Assembly (NCBI GenBank): GCA_031290005.1
Contig: JAITOJ010000053.1
Span: 1 to 31,297 of the forward strand
Origin: Treponema sp.
Lineage (GTDB): Bacteria; Spirochaetota; Spirochaetia; Treponematales; Treponemataceae
Direction: 5' to 3'
Length of the DNA stretch: 31,297 nt
The position numbers and the translations under genes are program-made. Under the pieces are notes generated by a model. The model searched no databases, was not told the DNA's origin, and was given only the letters and a program-made list of their open reading frames with translations. Shown piece after piece: positions 50 to 31,297 of the stretch; position 1 is the stretch's first letter, and each line of letters opens with the position of its first letter.

Positions 50-108
50 AACCTTCACCTCCTGTAGATTTCCTTTCGGGCTGACAGCCCGGAAAACAAC
101 ATGCGGTG

Positions 109-138
109 AGTATAGCAAAACAGGGGAGCGGGTGTCAA
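109..138 (-). promoter_or_regulatory. sigma70-type promoter TTGACA-N18-TATACT for the gene starting at 49
   Basis: near-consensus -35 and -10 boxes read on the minus strand. Confidence 0.7.
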
Positions 139-21370: not shown

Positions 21371-22171
21371 GTGCTGACTGAAATCAACGGAGAGCTGATA
21401 CCTCAAATAGAGTACGTGGTTTTCAGAAAATGTACTCCCGCCTGGCGGATGCCCCGGCATATATTGACAGCCTGGGATATAACCTATGTTGCGGAAGGCC
21501 GTGCGCAGTACAGTATCGACGAGGAAGAATACAACCTGACCGCGGGGGATTTGATATGTCTGCCTCCCCGCACGCGCCGGGAAGGCGTCACCGTGCCGGA
21601 CCACCTGATGCAGTGTTTTTCCGTGAATTTCCGCCTGACCAATCTGAAAGGCGAAAACGTCCGGCTCCCCTTCCCCATCCAGAGCCATATCGGTCTGGCA
21701 AAAGATGTTATCCATCTGTTCCACGACCTTTCTTTTGTCTGGCTGGATAAACAGCCGGGCTACGCCCTCAAAACCCGGGGCATCTTTCTGCTGATTTTGC
21801 ACCGTCTGTTTGAGCTGGCCTCAAGCATCCCGTCCGGTTCGGGAGAAACCGACGCCCGAATCCAGAAAATAACCAGATACATCGCGAAACATTATGCTGA
21901 AAGGATTTTGGTGAAAAACATGGCCGCCCTGGTGGGCCTGCACACGGGTTATTTCGGAGCGCTCTTCCACCAGGAAACCGGCGTCACCATGAACCAGTAC
22001 ATTATCCGCACCCGGGTCCGCAACGCGGAAAATATGCTCCGCAGCGGGGAATACAAGGTCAAGGAAGTGGCCGAAGCCTGCGGCTACTGCGACGACCTGC
22101 ACTTCTTCAAACAATTCAAGGCGGTTATGGGAATGCCGCCGTCGGCCTGCATCCCCAAACGCAACAATTAG
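21371..22171 (+). CDS. AraC family transcriptional regulator
   Basis: N-terminal cupin-like domain; C-terminal double HTH (YFGALFHQETG; KVKEVAEACGYCDDLHFFKQFK). Confidence 0.95.
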   Translation: MLTEINGELIPQIEYVVFRKCTPAWRMPRHILTAWDITYVAEGRAQYSIDEEEYNLTAGDLICLPPRTRREGVTVPDHLMQCFSVNFRLTNLKGENVRLPFPIQSHIGLAKDVIHLFHDLSFVWLDKQPGYALKTRGIFLLILHRLFELASSIPSGSGETDARIQKITRYIAKHYAERILVKNMAALVGLHTGYFGALFHQETGVTMNQYIIRTRVRNAENMLRSGEYKVKEVAEACGYCDDLHFFKQFKAVMGMPPSACIPKRNN

Positions 22172-22200
22172 CCCTTCACCGCGCCGATGGTCACGCCGGC
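22165..22200 (+). repeat. 36-bp direct repeat, copy 1 (duplicate of the permease 3' end)
   Basis: caattagcccttcaccgcgccgatggtcacgccggc; 35/36 identical to 22534-22569. Confidence 0.95.
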
Positions 22201-22289
22201 TTTTCGGGCCGCTTAGCCATAAATACAGCAATAAGACCAAAAATAAAAAACGGAATGCCAATAATTCCACTGACAATTAAAATTTCCAT
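22191..22289 (-). CDS. 32-aa single-TM micropeptide (MEILIVSGIIGIPFFIFGLIAVFMAKRPEKPA)
   Basis: AAGGAG RBS at the end of the upstream ORF, ATG 3 nt after its stop, hydrophobic core and charged tail; not in the ORF track. Confidence 0.65.
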   Translation of the reverse strand: MEILIVSGIIGIPFFIFGLIAVFMAKRPEKPA

Positions 22290-22292
22290 TGC

Positions 22293-22496
22293 TTACTCCT
22301 TTGTTATAATGACTAACATGAGACCTATTACCAACAATAGCCCCGTAGCGATTACCCCGCCTATAAAAAGTCGTGATTGGTCTATTGAGCCTCTGAGCAT
22401 AGTACCCAGCACCAGACTCCCAAACACAAGCTTTCCCAAATCAAACAGCATTTTCCCAACACTTTCACCTGCAAAAAGCCATTTCTTTTTATCCAA
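22293..22496 (-). CDS. 67-aa two-TM small membrane protein (DUF6722-like)
   Basis: TTG start with GGAGG; GKMLFDLGKLVFG motif; extended -10 (TGcTATAGT) at 22519-22527. Confidence 0.7.
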   Translation of the reverse strand: MDKKKWLFAGESVGKMLFDLGKLVFGSLVLGTMLRGSIDQSRLFIGGVIATGLLLVIGLMLVIITKE

Positions 22497-22533
22497 ACTT
22501 TGTACCTCCGCTTACTTTACTATAGCACACCGG

Positions 22534-22569
22534 CAATTAGCCCTTCACCGCGCCGATGGTCACACCGGC
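22534..22569 (+). repeat. 36-bp direct repeat, copy 2 (native permease 3' end)
   Basis: caattagcccttcaccgcgccgatggtcacaccggc. Confidence 0.95.
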
Positions 22570-24395: not shown

Positions 24396-24485
24396 TACTT
24401 AAAATACAGATACCTGGTATAAATTCAAGGCGACGTTATCAGTATGCAGCAATTCGGGTAAAGGAACAAAGCCCGCAAACGGCCA

Positions 24486-24663
24486 TCTCTAGGTGCTTCT
24501 ACCGTAGGGTAGAAGGGTCTTCAATCGTGGCGTAGAAGGGTCTTCAATCGTGGAGTAGAAGGGTCTTCTTCCCCACGGTAGAAGGGTCTTCTACCCCTCG
24601 ATTGAAGGTGCTTCTACCGTGGGGTAGAAGGGTCTTCTACCGCTGTGTAGAAGGCGCTTCTAC
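24486..24663. repeat. intergenic tandem array of eight 17-bp palindromic units (GTAGAAG-N3-CTTCTAC) with 6-bp spacers, 23-bp period
   Basis: units start at 24486 (degenerate), 24509, 24532, 24555, 24578, 24601, 24624, 24647. Confidence 0.92.
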
Positions 24664-24680
24664 AAGCGGTATCTTTTGGG

Positions 24681-26546
24681 CTAGACTTCCACAAAGGTAA
24701 AGCTGAGTTCCGGCAGGTTGATTTTGCCCGCCTTGACGGTCAGGGTGTCGTTCAGGTTGGGCTTCCGGGAGGTGATAAGCGTGGTCTGCCGGGCCAGGGC
24801 GGGAATCAGCACCGTGGCCTGATAGCCCCGGAGTTCCACCACCACCGCCTCGCCCGTCCAGTCCGGGTGTTCCAGCAGGTACACCAGAGTCCAGTGCAGG
24901 TTGGTCTCCCGTTCCGCTCTGGTGGCGGCCACTGCGGCGGCGTCCCCCTGGGAAATGCGTTCCAGCACCGCGGCAGTATCCAGCAGGGGCCCGCGGTCAA
25001 TGAACGCCCGGAGCTGCTGATGGGCCACCAGGTCGCCGTAGCGGCGGAGCGGGCTGGTCACCTGACTGTACATGGCAAGCCCCAGGCCGCTGTGCGGGGC
25101 GGGAATCGTGCCGATGCTCCGGGGGTGCATGGTCTTTACCATGCAGAACTGCCCGGCCAGCCCGTCGGGAATGTCCGTGGGGAGTTCCGGGGCGTCCTGG
25201 CTGGCATAGGGAAAGGGGATTTTGTTCTTGAAGGCAAACCGGGCCGCCCCTTCCCCGGCAAGGAGCATCATCTCCCGCACCATGTCCTGGGCGGCCGTGC
25301 CGGCCACGCGCTCAATGGAGACTTCGCCGTCCCGCGCGGCGATGTGGACTTCCGGCAGGACGATGTTGAGCGCCCCGGCCAGCTCCCGGCGGCGGCTGTT
25401 CTTCCGGGCGATTTCAAACAGGGGGGCGAACTCCGGCTCGTCCCTGCGGGCGTCCGCTTCCTGATAGGTGCGGCGCTGGACCTTCACCAGGGTCTTGAGC
25501 GTTGCGCAGTCCTCGACGCCGCCCTGAGCATTCAGGGTGATTTTGAAGGACAGGGCGCGGGACACCGGAGACAGGCCCAGGGCGTAGTCCTCCAGGGATT
25601 CCTCGGAGAGCATCCGGGCCGCCCCTTCGGGCAGATACAGGGTGGACCCCCGGGCCCGGGCGGCGAGGTCGATGGCGGAGTCCGGGGTGACCACCGAAGC
25701 CGGGTCGGCGATGTGCACCCACAGATATTCGCCGTCAAAAAAGACCGCGTCGTCCGGGTCATTGCTCCAGGCATTGTCGATGGCAAAGGCGGTGTGGTCC
25801 AGGACAATCCGCTCCTCTTCCGGGGGTTTGCACAGGCTTTCCCGGTTCGACCGGGACGACAGGCCCCAGCGGGCGGGATAGGGATTCCGATACCTGGTCC
25901 AGACGCCGGTGTCCAAAAGCAGCTTGTGGGCTTTGGCGGGCTCCACGGGGATTCCCGCGTCGGTCATGACCCGGGATTTTGCCGCCTGACCCAGCGCGGC
26001 CGCCTCCACTTCCTGCATAAACTGGGCGTCCCCGGGCAAGTCGAGTGTCCCGGCCTTGAGCCGCCCGATAAAGGCCCGCCGGGTTTCTTCGTCCTTCTCT
26101 TTGCCCGCTTCCTTCTCCCGCAGCCGGGCCGCCTGGTCCCGGGTCCGCAGGGTGAACCCCCCGGCGTCCGGGATTTCCGCGAACAGGGGACAAAGCCGCA
26201 CCGCCTCATAATACGCCCAGGCCGATTCCGCGGACACCGGCCCAAAGGCAAGCTCCGCGATTTCCGCCAAGGGCACGGTCAGGCTTTCCCCGTCAACGGC
26301 AAGCAGTTCATAGGCTTCTTCCAGCCGGGCAGGGGTATCCCGCTGGTCCGCGAACTTCCGGGCAAAGGCGAGCGCCTTGTCCAGGGACTCCAGGGGACCC
26401 GGATGCAGGGGGATGATGTCCTTTTCCCGCACCCGCTGGGTTTCTTTCTTACCCTGGGCCCGGTATTCTATGGTGAATTTGTCGTCCTTTGCGGTGACCA
26501 GCGCGGGCTCCCGCTTGTACAGTACCAGCGAATGTGTGCCTATCAT
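24681..26546 (-). CDS. rnb: RNB-domain exoribonuclease (RNase II family)
   Basis: AIDNAWSNDPDDA four-Asp catalytic motif; VHIADP; QVTSPLRRYGDLVAHQQL. Confidence 0.9.
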   Translation of the reverse strand: MIGTHSLVLYKREPALVTAKDDKFTIEYRAQGKKETQRVREKDIIPLHPGPLESLDKALAFARKFADQRDTPARLEEAYELLAVDGESLTVPLAEIAELAFGPVSAESAWAYYEAVRLCPLFAEIPDAGGFTLRTRDQAARLREKEAGKEKDEETRRAFIGRLKAGTLDLPGDAQFMQEVEAAALGQAAKSRVMTDAGIPVEPAKAHKLLLDTGVWTRYRNPYPARWGLSSRSNRESLCKPPEEERIVLDHTAFAIDNAWSNDPDDAVFFDGEYLWVHIADPASVVTPDSAIDLAARARGSTLYLPEGAARMLSEESLEDYALGLSPVSRALSFKITLNAQGGVEDCATLKTLVKVQRRTYQEADARRDEPEFAPLFEIARKNSRRRELAGALNIVLPEVHIAARDGEVSIERVAGTAAQDMVREMMLLAGEGAARFAFKNKIPFPYASQDAPELPTDIPDGLAGQFCMVKTMHPRSIGTIPAPHSGLGLAMYSQVTSPLRRYGDLVAHQQLRAFIDRGPLLDTAAVLERISQGDAAAVAATRAERETNLHWTLVYLLEHPDWTGEAVVVELRGYQATVLIPALARQTTLITSRKPNLNDTLTVKAGKINLPELSFTFVEV

Positions 26547-26552
26547 GGGGAC

Positions 26553-26586
26553 ACTATAGCGGAAACAGCGGAGCGGGGCAAGGTAT
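26553..26586 (-). repeat. repeat R1 (34 bp) containing promoter TTGCCC-N17-TATAGT of rnb
   Basis: actatagcggaaacagcggagcggggcaaggtat; 33/34 identical to R2. Confidence 0.9.
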
Positions 26587-27404
26587 TAATGACGGGCAAC
26601 GTGGGCAATCATCCGCCGGACATCTTCCGCGCAATTAACCGGCGCCAGGCGGACTGTTGGATGAGCGTTTGCGAATACCCTGAACACCTCGTCCGCGAAC
26701 CCCTGTCCAATGAACGGGACGTCCGAAAAATCCAATACCACTTCAATAAAACGGTCAAACCGGGTGATAAGCCGCTTGGCCTGCGAGCGGGACATGAGGT
26801 CTTCTCCGTCGTATTTCAGCAGCCGCACCGGAATAACGGTCTTATAAAACCCCGGCTGCTTGTCCGGGTCGGCGTATTCGTTAAATATGGCGGACAAAGA
26901 AACAGGCGAATCTGTGCGTATTTCCATCAGTATCACGGTTCCCGTGACGGTATCGTGGGCAGCCGGACGGTCATAATTATTATTTCCCAAAAACGCAAGA
27001 TTGTCTGAAAATATCGCAAAATAATCAAAAACCCGGGAGGTGAAAAAAATCCCTTCCCTGGAATGGTTCTGCGGGTCAGAAGTATATTTACCCTTTGCCA
27101 GTTCCAGAATAGCGTGCCGGGGGTCATCAAGCTGCAAATCACTCTTGATTTTGTTAAAAATTCCGACTCCCTGGTCGATAATTTTAAATTGTATTGCCTT
27201 ATCGCCCGCTGTGATAACAACCTGAAATTTTTCAGAACCCGAATGGTCAATCACATTATTCATCATTTCGGAAAACCCGTATTGACAGACCCGCAATACA
27301 TTCTCCGGAATGCCTGTCAAGTGCGGCGCGATGTCTTTTCTCCAGATACTGTCTTCACCCGGTGAGTTGAATAACGAATAGGAAAACTCATGTGTTTGGG
27401 CCAT
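26586..27404 (-). CDS. HATPase-like plus STAS-like (DUF4325) protein
   Basis: FSEMMNNVIDHSGS and IIDQGVGIF (HATPase boxes); SRSQAKRL..RF..F.EVVLDFSDV..IGQGFADEVFRVF (DUF4325); the track start 27425 abuts the -10 box, so Met 27404 is preferred. Confidence 0.85.
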   Translation of the reverse strand: MAQTHEFSYSLFNSPGEDSIWRKDIAPHLTGIPENVLRVCQYGFSEMMNNVIDHSGSEKFQVVITAGDKAIQFKIIDQGVGIFNKIKSDLQLDDPRHAILELAKGKYTSDPQNHSREGIFFTSRVFDYFAIFSDNLAFLGNNNYDRPAAHDTVTGTVILMEIRTDSPVSLSAIFNEYADPDKQPGFYKTVIPVRLLKYDGEDLMSRSQAKRLITRFDRFIEVVLDFSDVPFIGQGFADEVFRVFANAHPTVRLAPVNCAEDVRRMIAHVARH

Positions 27405-27425
27405 AGTTGTTTCCTGCCTGAACAT

Positions 27426-27459
27426 ACTATAGCGGAAACAGCGGCGCGGGGCAAGGTAT
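27426..27459 (-). repeat. repeat R2 (34 bp), second copy of the promoter-containing repeat
   Basis: actatagcggaaacagcggcgcggggcaaggtat. Confidence 0.9.
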
Positions 27460-27467
27460 GGACAATT

Positions 27468-27815
27468 TTAATTCTCCGCCAGAGTTTCCCGTTCTTTGAG
27501 CAATGCAGCCATATTCAGTACGATTTTGCGGTCGGCGCTGTCAAGGTTTTCCATGGTTTGTAAAACCATACGTATGTCCGGCGCAAGGGATGAAAATTTC
27601 TGCTTGCACGGGGTTTCCTCGCCGGTAACAAGATACTCGACGGAAACCCCAAGTACACCGGCAATCTTAACCGCGGCCTCAACCGACGGCACCTTTGCCC
27701 GCGACCCTAAATAACTGGCAAGGGTTTGCTGTTTTATACCTGACAACGCGGCAAGTTGTTTTATTTGCAAATCCCTAAACTGCAATTCTGATTTCACATT
27801 TTCTTTGAAACCCAT
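27468..27815 (-). CDS. XRE family HTH transcriptional regulator
   Basis: IKQLAALSGIKQQTLASYL..RAKVPSVEAAVKIAGVLGVSVEYLVTG. Confidence 0.9.
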   Translation of the reverse strand: MGFKENVKSELQFRDLQIKQLAALSGIKQQTLASYLGSRAKVPSVEAAVKIAGVLGVSVEYLVTGEETPCKQKFSSLAPDIRMVLQTMENLDSADRKIVLNMAALLKERETLAEN

Positions 27816-27824
27816 ATAACTATT

Positions 27825-27902
27825 ATGACAAAAGTCATATTACCGGTGTTGACACAATTGACCTTAGTCAATATAGTCTGTTTTATAATGACTTTAGTCA
27901 TT
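27825..27902. promoter_or_regulatory. divergent control region: three TGAC-N4-GTCA palindromes and promoter TTGACA-N17-TATAGT (+, 27849-27877)
   Basis: atgacaaaagtcat 27825-27838, ttgaccttagtcaa 27858-27871, aatgactttagtcatt 27887-27902. Confidence 0.8.
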
Positions 27903-27979
27903 TAATCCTGAAACTAATTGACAATCGGCATTTGTGTCCGGTGTCTGTGGGGTGGAAGTCCCTGCAAAGGTATAAAACA

Positions 27980-29149
27980 ATGCGAAACAAACTTTCGGAT
28001 TCTGATTTGCAATCGAAAACCATAGCGTGGCTGCGGTTGCCTTTGGTCATCTGCGTGGTATTTATCCATAGCTTTGGGCCGCCAGAAACGGCGCATATGC
28101 GGGAAATAAATTATCTGTCGATTTCCGGTATGGATATGTACAATATCATCCGTGTTTGGGGGTCGCATGTGGTTACCTATATTTGCAATTCCTGCTTTTT
28201 TATGTTTTCCGGGTATCTTTTCTTTTTCAAGATAACCAAATGGAATAAAGAAACCTATTTCAAGAAACTAAGAAGCAGAATTACAGCATTGGTTGTTCCT
28301 TATTTGTTGTGGAATATCATACCTATACTTGCTGTTGTTTTTATTTCCATAACCGGAAGAATCATAAAACAGGATGGAGATTGGGGGCGTATTCTCGCAT
28401 TTTTTAATACTATACGTGAACGCGGAGTATGGAATATATTTTGGAATTATAATCAGTGGGGGGGGGGGGGGGATTAAAAAAATATATAAGGCTGGCCAAC
28501 CCCAGCAACAGGGCCGTTTAGTGTACCGATGTGGTTTTTGCGGGATTTGATCGTTGTGGTGGTTTTAACGCCGGTAATCTATTTAATTTGTAAACATTTG
28601 AAAATTTATGGAATAATTGCCCTGGGAATAGCCTATTATACCGGAATATGGCTTTTGGTTCCCGGTTTCAGTATCACCGCCTTTTTCTTTTTCAGTCTGG
28701 GGGCATATTTCAGTATTCACGGAAAGAATATGGTTTTAGAATTACGGAAAGGAAAAATAATGTGGGGAATTCTGGCGTGTATAACGATGATCCTCTGCGT
28801 ATATTATGACGGAACAAAAACACGGAGTTATTTTTCTCCGGTTTATGTGCTGTCCGGGGTGATAAGCGCGGTTAATATCGCGTCCTATTTATTGGAACGG
28901 GGAAAAATTACCGTTCGACCTTTGCTCTCAGAATCGACATTCTTCATTTATGCAATGCATATGGTACTCGTACTATCAATAACTGGAATGATATTTGATT
29001 TTATTTTCAGGCCGGAGCAGTGGTATCTACTGATAGTTCGGTATGTTACTGTTCCCTTGGCAGCGGCAGGAATATGTGTGTTCATATACTGGGCAATGAA
29101 AAGAGTGACCCCCAAGATTCTTGGCATACTGACCGGCGGGCGGGTGTAA
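27980..29149 (+). pseudogene. acyltransferase-3 (OafA-like) gene interrupted at a G15 tract by two in-frame TAA stops
   Basis: LRLPLVICVVFIHS, FFMFSGYLFF, VPYLLWN, PMWFLRDL, FFIYAMH; both halves are in the same frame with TAA at 28475 and 28487. Confidence 0.85.
28458..28472 (+). repeat. G15 homopolymer
   Basis: counted directly from the sequence. Confidence 0.95.
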
Positions 29150-29171
29150 CAGGGGGGGATTTTTGCCGCTT

Positions 29172-29199
29172 CGGAAACAGCAGTACGGGGCAAGGTATG
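29172..29199 (-). repeat. repeat R3, degenerate third copy lacking the -10 box
   Basis: cggaaacagcagtacggggcaaggtatg; 25/28 identical to 27433-27460. Confidence 0.85.
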
Positions 29200-29508
29200 C
29201 TATTCCGTAATGAGTTGTGGCAAATTACGTTTTTTATAAATAATGCGGTGTATTTCAATAGTCATATCTGCTACGGTATAAAACACAAGGTAATTTTTGA
29301 CCGGCAACACCCGATATTCCGTATCAATTGGTTTGGGGAATTGAAAAAGCCGGTGGGCAAAGGGAAATTGCATAAGATTCTGACACGTCTGCTCTACGGC
29401 ATCAAGTAAATCAAGCGCGGCCTTCGGCGCTTCCAGGGCAGTAGTGATGTAATCTACTATGGCCTCAAGGTCTTTTCTAAAACCAGGCAAATAACTGAGG
29501 CTATACAT
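29200..29508 (-). CDS. RelE/ParE family toxin
   Basis: DLEAIVDYI..ALEAPKAALDLLD; FP..H; YRVLPVKNYLVFYTV; IHRIIY. Confidence 0.92.
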   Translation of the reverse strand: MYSLSYLPGFRKDLEAIVDYITTALEAPKAALDLLDAVEQTCQNLMQFPFAHRLFQFPKPIDTEYRVLPVKNYLVFYTVADMTIEIHRIIYKKRNLPQLITE

Positions 29509-29776
29509 TATTTCCCATCACCCGCTCCCGTAAACCGGAAAATACTTCTTGGTGGGATAATCGTTTGGAACTTAGCCGCGCCTCTGTTTCGGCCTCTTTG
29601 AGTTTCAGGTAGATTTCATTTTCAAATTGAGTTTCTTCCCACGCCTGAATACTCATGACTACCATATCGCCGTAGCCATTTTTTGTTAGAAATACGGGTT
29701 CATTCGTTTCATGAACTTCGCGGGAAATCTCCGTAAAGTTGTTTCTTAAATCAGAAATAGGACGAATAGCGGGCAT
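29501..29776 (-). CDS. Phd/YefM family antitoxin
   Basis: IRPISDLRNNFTEIS..VHETNEPVFLTKNGYGDMVVMS; overlaps the toxin start by 8 bp. Confidence 0.93.
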   Translation of the reverse strand: MPAIRPISDLRNNFTEISREVHETNEPVFLTKNGYGDMVVMSIQAWEETQFENEIYLKLKEAETEARLSSKRLSHQEVFSGLRERVMGNNV

Positions 29777-29795
29777 TATTTGGCCTCCTTTTCAA

Positions 29796-29833
29796 ATTAT
29801 CATGATAATAGCATAATTATGATAGTTGTGCAA
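29796..29833 (-). promoter_or_regulatory. TA promoter TTGCAC-N17-TATTAT with overlapping palindromic operators
   Basis: attatcatgataat 29796-29809 and cataattatg 29812-29821. Confidence 0.75.
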
Positions 29834-29860
29834 TGCATATGGAATAGGGCTTTTCCCCGC

Positions 29861-30214
29861 TCACCTGGGGTTCAGGGTTTCCTCAACCCCGGTGCGCAAG
29901 GCGGTAAGCAGGCGGTCAGAAATATCCTGCTTCACCTGTTCCGGCAGGGCGGTTAAAAAATCATCGGTTTCAGTGATTATATCTATTGAGGATTCCTGAT
30001 TAACCCGTCCGTCTATAAAAAACCGGAATGCATCCACATTGAGGGCAGTTGCTATTTTTTCAACCATCTCTATGGAAGGGAATTTTCTGCCGATTTCAAT
30101 CTCACCGATATAGCTTGCGGCGGTGTCGCAGTATGCGGCGAGTTTCATTTGGGAAACCCCGGCCTCTTTTCTGATTCTTCGTAAATTGCGGACAAATACA
30201 TGTTTCAAATCCAT
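29861..30214 (-). CDS. XRE family HTH transcriptional regulator
   Basis: NLRRIRKEAGVSQMKLAAYCDTAASYIGEIEIGRKFPSIEMVEKIATAL. Confidence 0.92.
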   Translation of the reverse strand: MDLKHVFVRNLRRIRKEAGVSQMKLAAYCDTAASYIGEIEIGRKFPSIEMVEKIATALNVDAFRFFIDGRVNQESSIDIITETDDFLTALPEQVKQDISDRLLTALRTGVEETLNPR

Positions 30215-30249
30215 AACAGTAATAATAAGCTATTGGCTGATAAACCCTG

Positions 30250-30278
30250 TTGACAATTAGCTTGTGAATAAATACAAT
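30250..30278 (+). promoter_or_regulatory. promoter TTGACA-N17-TACAAT for the second acyltransferase
   Basis: near-consensus boxes in the divergent intergenic region. Confidence 0.7.
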
Positions 30279-30352
30279 CATCTTTAAGCTAGCGTGGCTT
30301 ATGGCTAATTATTTATAGCTATAAAGTGATTATAAAACAAAGGAAGGTGGTT

Positions 30353-31297
30353 ATGATTGCGGCAATCGACGGGCAGTTATCCAAGCGGATAAACTCATTA
30401 CGGTTTTTGCTGATTGTGTTTGTGGTGTTTATCCATAGTGGAATAACCGAAGAAGGTTTAGCGGGTAGGAATATAACGGTAGAAATTCCAATCTATGTTG
30501 CAAAAATTCAAATAATCGTATCCGATATTATTTCCCGTGTTGCGGTTCCTCTCTTTTTCCTTATATCCGGATTCTTGTTGTATGCAAAGGAACCAAAATT
30601 CAGCACGGTATTAAAAAAGAAAAGCCGGACACTGTTATTGCCATTATTATTGTGGAATTTACTGTTTGTTTTGGTTTATTTTCTTATGCAAAATTTATCT
30701 TTTACAAAAGCCTTTTTTAATAGTTCTGCGGAAGACCTTATCCATAATTATAGTTTGTTGGACTGGATAGATGTGTTCGTAGGTAAGTTTACCGCAAGAA
30801 GAGAGTATAATTTTCCATTTGATTATCCCTTGTGGTTTATACGCGATTTATATATTCTTGTCATATTGTTTATTGGCATAAAAAAAGCCATCGATAAATT
30901 CCCCTTTGGAACTTTTATTGTATTTTTTATATTATGGATAACGAATATAACTATATACATTATATCGCCGGAAGCGTTATTCTTTTTCTCATTGGGTTAT
31001 TATATCGTAAAGTATTCATTAAAAGTAAATAAAATTGATAGTATAAAAATATATGAACTATCAATAATATATATAACAACAATACTTATTGAGTTGTTTT
31101 TTAATGAATATGTACCAATAATACACAAAATCAATATCATTATAGGTTGTATGTTCTTTTTAAAAATATCATTGTATTTTGTAAAAAATGTAAAATTATA
31201 TGCTGCCCTTGTGTGGCTTGAAAAATATGAATTTATAGTATACGCGATTCATGCCTTTATTTTACCGCAATTATTGAAGTTGAGTATAAAGTTATTT
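30353..31297 (+). CDS. acyltransferase-3 (OafA-like), 3' end beyond the window
   Basis: open frame from ATG 30353 to the window end, absent from the track for lack of a stop: LRFLLIVFVVFIHS, AVPLFFLISG, PLWFIRDL, IVYAIH; very AT-rich. Confidence 0.88.
   Translation, partial: MIAAIDGQLSKRINSLRFLLIVFVVFIHSGITEEGLAGRNITVEIPIYVAKIQIIVSDIISRVAVPLFFLISGFLLYAKEPKFSTVLKKKSRTLLLPLLLWNLLFVLVYFLMQNLSFTKAFFNSSAEDLIHNYSLLDWIDVFVGKFTARREYNFPFDYPLWFIRDLYILVILFIGIKKAIDKFPFGTFIVFFILWITNITIYIISPEALFFFSLGYYIVKYSLKVNKIDSIKIYELSIIYITTILIELFFNEYVPIIHKINIIIGCMFFLKISLYFVKNVKLYAALVWLEKYEFIVYAIHAFILPQLLKLSIKLF

Follow-up and report, generated by a model that had tools for sequence, protein, structure and literature searches.

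Here we describe a stack of accessory gene modules directly upstream of rnb, which encodes an exoribonuclease of the RNase II/R family, in an uncultured termite-gut Treponema. The window analysed is an entire contig of 31,297 nt (C143) of a metagenome-assembled genome (MAG; 1.53 Mb in 160 contigs, 52% complete, GC 0.535). Three direct copies of a short sequence, termed R1, R2 and R3, delimit two modules, E1 and E2, and R1 coincides with the promoter of rnb itself. The explanation that we favor, with slightly better than even confidence, is that the modules arrived by two successive insertions with long target duplication into the native, apparently leaderless rnb promoter. A first-pass annotation of the window had described the locus as integron-like accretion at a promoter hotspot, a description that is revised here.

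Three copies of the rnb promoter

The target gene and the three repeat copies are arranged as follows.

24681-26546, minus strand: rnb (RNase II/R-family exoribonuclease, 621 aa; Pfam RNB, HTH_RNase_II and S1), GC 0.66; core gene and proposed insertion target
26553-26586, minus strand: R1, predicted rnb core promoter adjoining rnb (TTGCCC-17-TATAGT, 6 nt, ATG)
27426-27459, minus strand: R2, complete copy of the predicted rnb promoter, placed upstream of E1; 33/34 identical to R1
29172-29199, minus strand: R3, partial copy (-35 box and spacer, no -10 box); putative upstream scar of the E2 insertion

R1 and R2 differ only at 26572 (A) versus 27445 (C), and their longest unbroken identity is 19 nt. 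R3 matches R2 at 25 of 28 positions including one common flanking base, or at 24 of 27 over the core. A 27-nt pattern with up to three mismatches finds exactly these three sites in the window (0.00 expected from shuffled sequences). Repeat and pattern searches, together with a Pfam gene map, confirmed that R1 and R2 bracket exactly one open reading frame (ORF) and that R2 and R3 bracket a module encoding an XRE regulator and an acyltransferase. The left boundaries of the copies agree to ±1 nt, while the right boundaries of the two events lie 7 nt apart. The first-pass annotation had placed each copy 0-8 nt past a minus-strand stop codon, and the measured distances are 0, 8 and 1 nt: R1 overlaps the last base of the HATPase/DUF4325 stop, R2 begins 8 nt past the XRE1 stop and R3 begins 1 nt past the ParE stop.

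The repeat is confined to this locus. A fourth copy, which the first-pass annotation had suggested might lie beyond the window, is absent from the 1.53-Mb assembly even with 8 mismatches allowed or in half-site searches, and the contig ends inside the low-GC island, which runs off at 31297. An inverted partial R at 29838-29853 was rejected, as sites with up to three mismatches are expected 0.3 times by chance. With three local copies and no hairpin, R does not behave as a dispersed repeat of the repetitive extragenic palindrome (REP) or miniature inverted-repeat transposable element type. The locus itself is present in one public sequencing run only, a termite-gut metagenome. Searches for exact copies of the rnb, DUF4325 and XRE1 proteins returned no match, and the one for ParE returned a single match, the Logan contig of the source run; a degenerate R pattern found eight loci in metagenome contigs, none of which resembles the window, so that these are chance or unrelated matches. 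Protein homologues of the window genes carry the names Treponema or Spirochaetia.

The native promoter of rnb in related spirochaetes

On the minus strand, R1 reads ATACC-TTGCCC-17 nt-TATAGT, followed by GTCCCC and the rnb ATG, and a consensus promoter scan scores both R1 and R2 as promoter-like. The same arrangement recurs in relatives. Orthologues of rnb were found in 40/41 relatives searched, and promoter placement was compared across orthologous loci L005-L023, L061 and L063, with all other ATGs in the same loci as controls. A TTG-N19-21-TAnnnT signal ending 5-7 nt before the ATG is present in 15/21 rnb orthologues (0.4% of control ATGs), and at least a -10 box at this distance in 18/21 (4.7% of control ATGs). 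The closest rnb among 5.8 billion proteins (64% aa identity; JGI termite contig, L061) is preceded by TTGCC and an identical 15-nt stretch, GTTTCCGCTATAGTG, around the -10 box, at the same positions and spacing. Given this conserved placement of the -10 box before the ATG, rnb is apparently a leaderless gene throughout the spirochaete family. The scan, the orthologues and the L061 match together bear out the earlier claim that R contains the rnb -35 and -10 boxes. By these comparisons R1 is the predicted ancestral rnb promoter, and R2 and R3 are therefore its copies and not an imported site.

Relatives do not share the stack. At each of the 24 related loci examined, the orthologous rnb promoter is present in a single copy, and no duplicated promoter or stack was found in the 1.5-10 kb examined upstream of rnb. 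In genus-level relatives the gene upstream of rnb differs each time (AAA_14/DUF4143, PfkB, DUF3786, a Na/Ala symporter, lysC-dapB). With such differing neighbors, and no duplicated promoter in relatives, the hotspot proposed in the first-pass annotation is not shown to be shared by the clade.

Several further observations concern the surroundings of rnb. The lysC-dapB pair lies divergently upstream of rnb in two related genera; in the MAG it is at the start of another contig (C159:1-2289) and may be the far flank of the island. A conserved gene of 370 aa adjoins rnb in four genera (downstream in three), and in the MAG it lies at a contig end (C105:3-956). With both on other contigs, the rnb neighborhood has been rearranged or interrupted by the island. 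Directly downstream of rnb (24468-24684) is an array of the palindrome GTAGAAG-N3-CTTCTAC with a 23-nt period, on which Rfam gives only meaningless sub-threshold miRNA matches. Arrays of the same period with other units occur on contigs C74, C109, C106 and C145, and the half-genome encodes seven Y1_Tnp proteins (IS200/RAYT-like, after REP-associated tyrosine transposases); the arrays and these genes possibly form a system like REPs and bacterial interspersed mosaic elements.

Module E1 and its probable borrowed promoter

The module between R1 and R2 contains one gene only and spans 839 nt (GC 0.48).

26586-27404, minus strand: E1 gene, short-form HATPase_c + DUF4325 (STAS-like) protein of 272 aa (Pfam)
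27405-27425, minus strand: E1 leader with an AGGAAA ribosome-binding site, no promoter of its own (from sequence)

The ORF had been described as bracketed by the repeats from its stop to its first ATG. The stop does overlap R1. As the start, the ATG at 27404, with its AGGAAA Shine-Dalgarno sequence, is likelier than the ATG at 27425 directly beside R2. The TATAGT of R2 lies 21 nt before the E1 ATG, which gives space for the short leader with AGGAAA. A homologue of 272 aa (81% identical) on termite-metagenome contig L048 lies directly upstream of uvrB and has its own promoter, TTGACA-17-TACTGT. The DNA similarity between E1 and L048 sets in only ∼15 nt ahead of the ATG and ends at the stop codon, and the L048 promoter is missing in E1. 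Because the similarity is confined in this way, E1 is a promoterless unit of ribosome-binding site and ORF, to which R2 probably supplies the promoter. The earlier proposal that each step leaves rnb with its promoter and gives the DUF4325 gene a copy agrees with this arrangement, in which R1 is complete and R2 stands upstream of the promoterless E1.

The E1 protein family is large and spans several phyla. Most members have 341-355 aa with an N-terminal winged-helix domain, and the E1 protein belongs to a minority short form (270-290 aa) without this domain. In other termite-gut contigs the short form occurs amid sugar-nucleotide genes, beside AAA_14/DUF4143 or SLFN/AlbA_2 genes. No direct repeats flank the E1 homologues on termite-metagenome contigs L048, L064 and L065, and E1 is therefore not shown as a recurrent cargo of such insertions. 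In PADLOC, neither E1 nor the acyltransferases nor ParE/Phd match a defence system, and the XRE proteins give generic helix-turn-helix matches only.

Module E2 and the island beyond

The module between R2 and R3 spans 1705 nt (GC 0.42) and consists of XRE1 and an acyltransferase gene in divergent orientation, with promoters of their own. At either end of the module a stop codon is found 8-21 nt away. Further low-GC genes follow up to the end of the contig.

27468-27815, minus strand: XRE1, HTH_3 regulator of E2 (Pfam; capH/C-protein-like HTH in PADLOC)
27849-27877, plus strand: predicted promoter of the E2 acyltransferase, TTGACA-17-TATAGT (11/12 consensus positions)
27980-29149, plus strand: AT1, Acyl_transf_3 membrane acyltransferase of E2 (Pfam on both halves)
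29200-29776, minus strand: operon of ParE toxin and Phd/YefM (PhdYeFM) antitoxin (Pfam), GC 0.42; flank or older module
29861-30214, minus strand: second XRE gene (Pfam), in a divergent pair with the second Acyl_transf_3 gene
30353 to contig end, plus strand: second Acyl_transf_3 gene (Pfam); the pair (29861-31297) has GC 0.34

The second XRE/acyltransferase pair shows only 27-35% identity to that of E2, over short stretches, and is therefore a separate acquisition and not a recent duplicate of E2. GC content falls stepwise away from rnb, from 0.66 in rnb to 0.48 in E1, 0.42 in E2 and ParE/Phd, and 0.34 in the last pair. R3 has kept the -35 box and spacer without the -10 box, and is thus a promoter stump.

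AT1 is split in the window by a poly-G run (28460-28472) and two in-frame stops, together within 28460-28480. A Logan contig of the source run has other letters at this place and six fewer bases, giving one open frame of 387 aa, and the poly-G and stops are probably a sequencing or assembly artefact. Poly-G or poly-C also occurs at the ends of contigs C159, C96, C93 and C155. These artefacts, in AT1 and at the poly-G ends of other contigs, and the strain variation within the run could also be cited for reading the whole stack as an artefact, in which a metagenome assembler threaded strain variants in tandem. We consider this hardly credible, since both a read and the usual final k-mer are longer than R, so that reads must span R with both flanks, and since R3 with its two flanks, and also the step from rnb into R1, are contained in independent Logan contigs.

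Lack of support for an integron

Chromosomal integrons occur in Treponema species (PMC3607928), and the cargo of the rnb island (toxin-antitoxin, XRE, acyltransferase), with repeats placed right past stop codons, resembles a cassette array. The locus could accordingly be pictured as the distal end of a Treponema-type chromosomal integron array, with R as a degenerate attC site. R1 and R2 with their flanks have minimum free energies of -0.6 to -2.2 kcal/mol and z-scores of +0.8 to +1.9, which means that they do not fold as single strands. R contains no GTTRRRY/RYYYAAC pair (the attC core motifs), and Rfam finds nothing on it. No protein of the assembly reaches the integron-integrase cut-off (the Xer-type recombinase and the tyrosine integrase mentioned below score far below it), in a genome that is 52% complete and with the contig ending inside the island. 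E2 comprises two divergent genes with their own promoters, the repeat is the predicted native promoter of rnb, and a different repeat is found at each event in the genome. On these grounds the integron reading is exceedingly improbable, and the integron likeness drawn in the first-pass annotation is not supported. Its observation that no integrase, transposase or attC-like structure is visible is upheld by Pfam, folding and Rfam.

Recombinases and the possibility of an attachment site

Pfam searches of all E1 and E2 ORFs give no transposase or integrase, neither module has terminal inverted repeats, and no recombinase is encoded in the 4.7 kb of island in the window (26587-31297). A search of the assembled half-genome for recombinases and RAYT genes, as the first-pass annotation had advised, gives a Xer-type recombinase next to ftsZ, one generic tyrosine integrase of 421 aa on C125 and the seven Y1_Tnp genes, none of them linked to R.

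These results bear on the reading of R as an attachment (att) site, at which integrase-less islands resembling cis-mobilizable elements (CIMEs) or integrative mobilizable elements (IMEs) were stacked by tandem accretion. Here the att site would overlap the rnb promoter, a tyrosine or serine recombinase would be encoded past the contig end or in another part of the genome, and rnb would remain expressed through the promoter copy that arrives with each element. Well-documented tandem arrays at att sites speak for this, as do the left boundary that all three R copies share to within 1 nt and the repeat length of 28-34 nt, typical of att identity blocks. The low-GC island reaches the contig end, and the C125 integrase is an available, generic candidate. 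Against this stand the lack of a recombinase in the island and of a fourth R copy in the assembly, the 7-nt offset between the right boundaries of the two events, and the identity of R as the host's own ancestral promoter. At least four other integrase-free inserts in the genome carry unrelated repeats of 36-156 nt, so the att reading would need several lost integrases. We regard it as unlikely, while giving it real weight.

The same footprint elsewhere in the genome

The MAG was scanned for isolated direct repeats of 24-130 nt spaced 150-6000 nt apart. Besides the rnb locus, the following inserts were found.

Window, 22165-22569, no strand assigned: 333-nt low-GC insert with two small membrane ORFs between 36-nt repeats at 22165/22534 (35/36)
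C81, 1796-2667: 38-nt repeat, 100% identical; MNT-HEPN pair at the 3' end of a conserved gene
C108, 1688-5110: 115-nt repeat, 97%; duplicated 3' end of a LacI-type gene, 3.2-kb insert with XRE and small ORFs
C120, 64-919: 121-nt repeat, 98%; comEC promoter and first 19 codons, MazF/PemK and antitoxin pair (MazEF)
C66, 2789-3748: ∼156-nt repeat with promoter; insert carrying a 122-aa ORF

All five inserts have lower GC than their flanks, and none has terminal inverted repeats, an integrase-sized ORF or a recombinase. No motif is common to the repeats of the different events. The repeats at 22165/22534 duplicate the overlapping 3' ends of convergent AraC and ABC-permease genes, and the 36-nt duplication keeps the overlapping stops of both. 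The first-pass annotation had seen the same duplicate-the-target logic at 22165-22569 and taken it as a hint of a general trans-acting mechanism; the footprint does recur, in the window and on at least four other contigs. A single site-specific trans-acting enzyme is not supported, as the repeats share no motif.

For C81, disruption in mid-gene was considered, as removal of the insert gives a 362-aa ORF, and rejected. The orthologues extend only 1-12 residues past the repeat, and 25 relatives have no homologue of the 112-aa frame that crosses the repeat copy and continues into the tail, which places the insert at the extreme 3' end of the gene. ComEC and DprA are encoded in the MAG. Ku did not turn up in the assembly, a negative that says little at 52% completeness.

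A dispersed conserved promoter element of ∼40 nt, CTTGACAC..CCCTGyTTTGCTATACTC..CATG (spacer included), precedes unrelated sequences in at least 10 copies.

Window, 98-138, minus strand: dispersed promoter element; also on contigs C59, C71, C96, C105, C106, C134, C144, C152 and C159

Many of its copies lie 100-300 nt from contig ends, and several then share a ∼30-nt leader; the element may represent a promoter that is reused or mobile, or else the leading end of a multi-copy element. It is loosely resembled by R in CTGTTTC(C)GCTATA, and reuse of promoters has been described (PMC3575422), which lends something to a further reading in which the island was already contiguous and a short promoter segment was copied before the DUF4325 gene and again upstream. 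No R copy lies outside the locus, however, and R3 promotes nothing useful, as its -10 box is absent and it faces the acyltransferase antisense. The other events in the genome duplicate gene 3' ends and not promoters, and copying 34 nt alone has no known mechanism. Such a mobile promoter is thus very improbable here.

Order of events and weighing of the evidence

In the favored reading of insertion with long target duplication, E2, with its own promoters, probably entered the rnb promoter first. This event would have duplicated 28 nt, starting ∼5 nt ahead of the -35 box and stopping just short of the -10 box, and would have left the R3 stump. Later the promoterless E1 would have entered the rnb-proximal copy, duplicating 34 nt from the -35 through the -10 box, so that rnb would retain the full promoter R1 while E1 would be driven by the other copy, R2. 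The order is deduced solely from divergence, R3 having diverged at 3/28 positions and R1 and R2 differing at one. The joining would have been carried out by host DNA uptake, repair or recombination, and not by a dedicated enzyme.

Several points weigh against this reading. Both events fall on one 35-nt segment, where their left breakpoints differ by 1 nt and their right ones by 7 nt. Such a near-coincidence is unlikely for random staggered breaks, and a site-specific or homology-driven process fits it better; it makes genuine contenders of an att-type process, of re-entry of R-bearing units by homology and of a structural hotspot at the promoter complex. Every module end is found 0-21 nt from a stop codon, closer than random breakage predicts, and the R2/R3 repeat of 28 nt is just under the 30-bp cut-off of the literature. 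The island leaves the contig, so that a recombinase might be encoded farther upstream. Insertion is inferred from composition and genus-level comparison only.

Homology-driven re-entry would proceed by Campbell-type recombination of R-flanked modules from sibling cells, as circles or as linear R-module-R units, into a resident R. It accounts for the reuse of the same segment and boundary by the second event and makes stacking automatic; ComEC and DprA are present, and an 'invade, amplify, release' cycle was proposed by Furuta et al. (PMC2853133). One Logan contig of the source run stops at 26571, exactly 1 nt short of the R1/R2 difference, which is only a hint, in favor of re-entry, that both letters may follow the rnb flank in the population. 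Loss of modules through recombination between repeats, as proposed in the first-pass annotation, is likewise hinted at by this contig end alone. The 26572 site could reflect a polymorphism, gene conversion or an E1-less allele, which contigs cannot tell apart. At the corresponding position of R3 (29184) a third letter, T, is found, where R1 has A and R2 (27445) has C. Re-entry leaves the origin of the first duplication unexplained, and the 19 nt of unbroken R1/R2 identity is short for RecA-dependent exchange. No R1-to-R2 or R2-to-R3 joint, and so no circle or deletion junction, is among the 15 joints listed from contigs of the source run and two runs of the same study, in which rare forms are invisible. 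We judge this reading to be quite unlikely.

The near-coincident breakpoints would also follow if the rnb promoter were a preferred landing pad, with breakpoints set by the promoter complex itself, an idea that we consider improbable. The duplicated segment, which spans positions of about -41 through -13 or -6 counted from the leaderless start, would roughly match the stretch held by the sigma factor, and long target duplications would arise from breaks at the edges of protein-protected or melted DNA. If this were true, stacked events such as these would offer a first clue to the mechanism by which cassettes without a recombinase enter genomes and acquire a promoter as they do so.

Comparison with known systems

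Among known systems, tandem accretion at att sites, by integrative and conjugative elements, IMEs and CIMEs or in tRNA-gene islands, likewise yields a series of direct repeats that delimits foreign modules beside a preserved conserved gene. It differs from the rnb locus, in which no integrase is visible, the repeats are the host promoter and the footprint occurs at many unrelated genome sites. Integron arrays, including those of Treponema (PMC3607928), share the compact modules, the promoterless cassette under an upstream promoter and the repeats right past stops, whereas the rnb locus has no attC fold and no visible IntI or attI, one of its modules has its own promoters and both orientations, and its repeat is a duplicated target. 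Promoter reuse (PMC3575422) similarly places the same promoter before non-homologous genes, here rnb and the DUF4325 gene. The copies at rnb, by contrast, are adjacent and explained as target duplications, and the third is a non-functional stump.

Insertion with long target duplication reportedly goes back to Nobusato et al. 2000 (Gene 259:99). As surveyed by Furuta, Abe and Kobayashi (2010, NAR; PMC2853133), its repeats exceed 30 bp and vary in length, no other mobile element is involved and the hosts are mostly naturally competent species. The definition in that work asks for a repeat >30 bp, an insert <20 kb, no transposase, integrase or prophage in or beside the insert, a single-copy target and, in a comparison genome, that target uninterrupted. 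At the rnb locus, R is unique to the locus, the inserts are 839 and 1705 nt, and the repeats are 34 nt (R1/R2) and 28 nt with 3 mismatches (R2/R3).

The rnb locus is best placed in this class, and the earlier statement that promoter copies delimit stacked cassettes is right. As in other members, foreign units of <20 kb lie between direct repeats (∼30-400 bp) of an otherwise unique target, often a gene 3' end; repeat length varies, transposase and integrase are lacking, GC is unlike that of the host, and the bacteria mostly have DNA-uptake genes. Unlike in those members, the cargo is toxin-antitoxin, XRE/acyltransferase and HATPase/DUF4325 instead of restriction-modification, a single target has taken two stacked events whose breakpoints almost coincide, this target is an entire, predicted leaderless promoter that is passed to a promoterless cargo gene, and no empty-site genome accompanies it.

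Through long target duplication, small selfish or accessory units enter genomes without an enzyme of their own, and the Treponema MAG extends the footprint to spirochaetes and to cargo other than restriction-modification, with at least six events in half a genome. As read from the sequence, the duplication would be neutral for the target, since rnb keeps its promoter, and useful for the cargo, since a promoterless gene receives a copy. The unusual features of the rnb locus are the stacking of events, the near-identical breakpoints on the same 35 nt and the capture of a promoter by promoterless cargo. Two events on the same 35 nt with nearly identical breakpoints argue that the choice of target was non-random, which could guide experiments on the mechanism.

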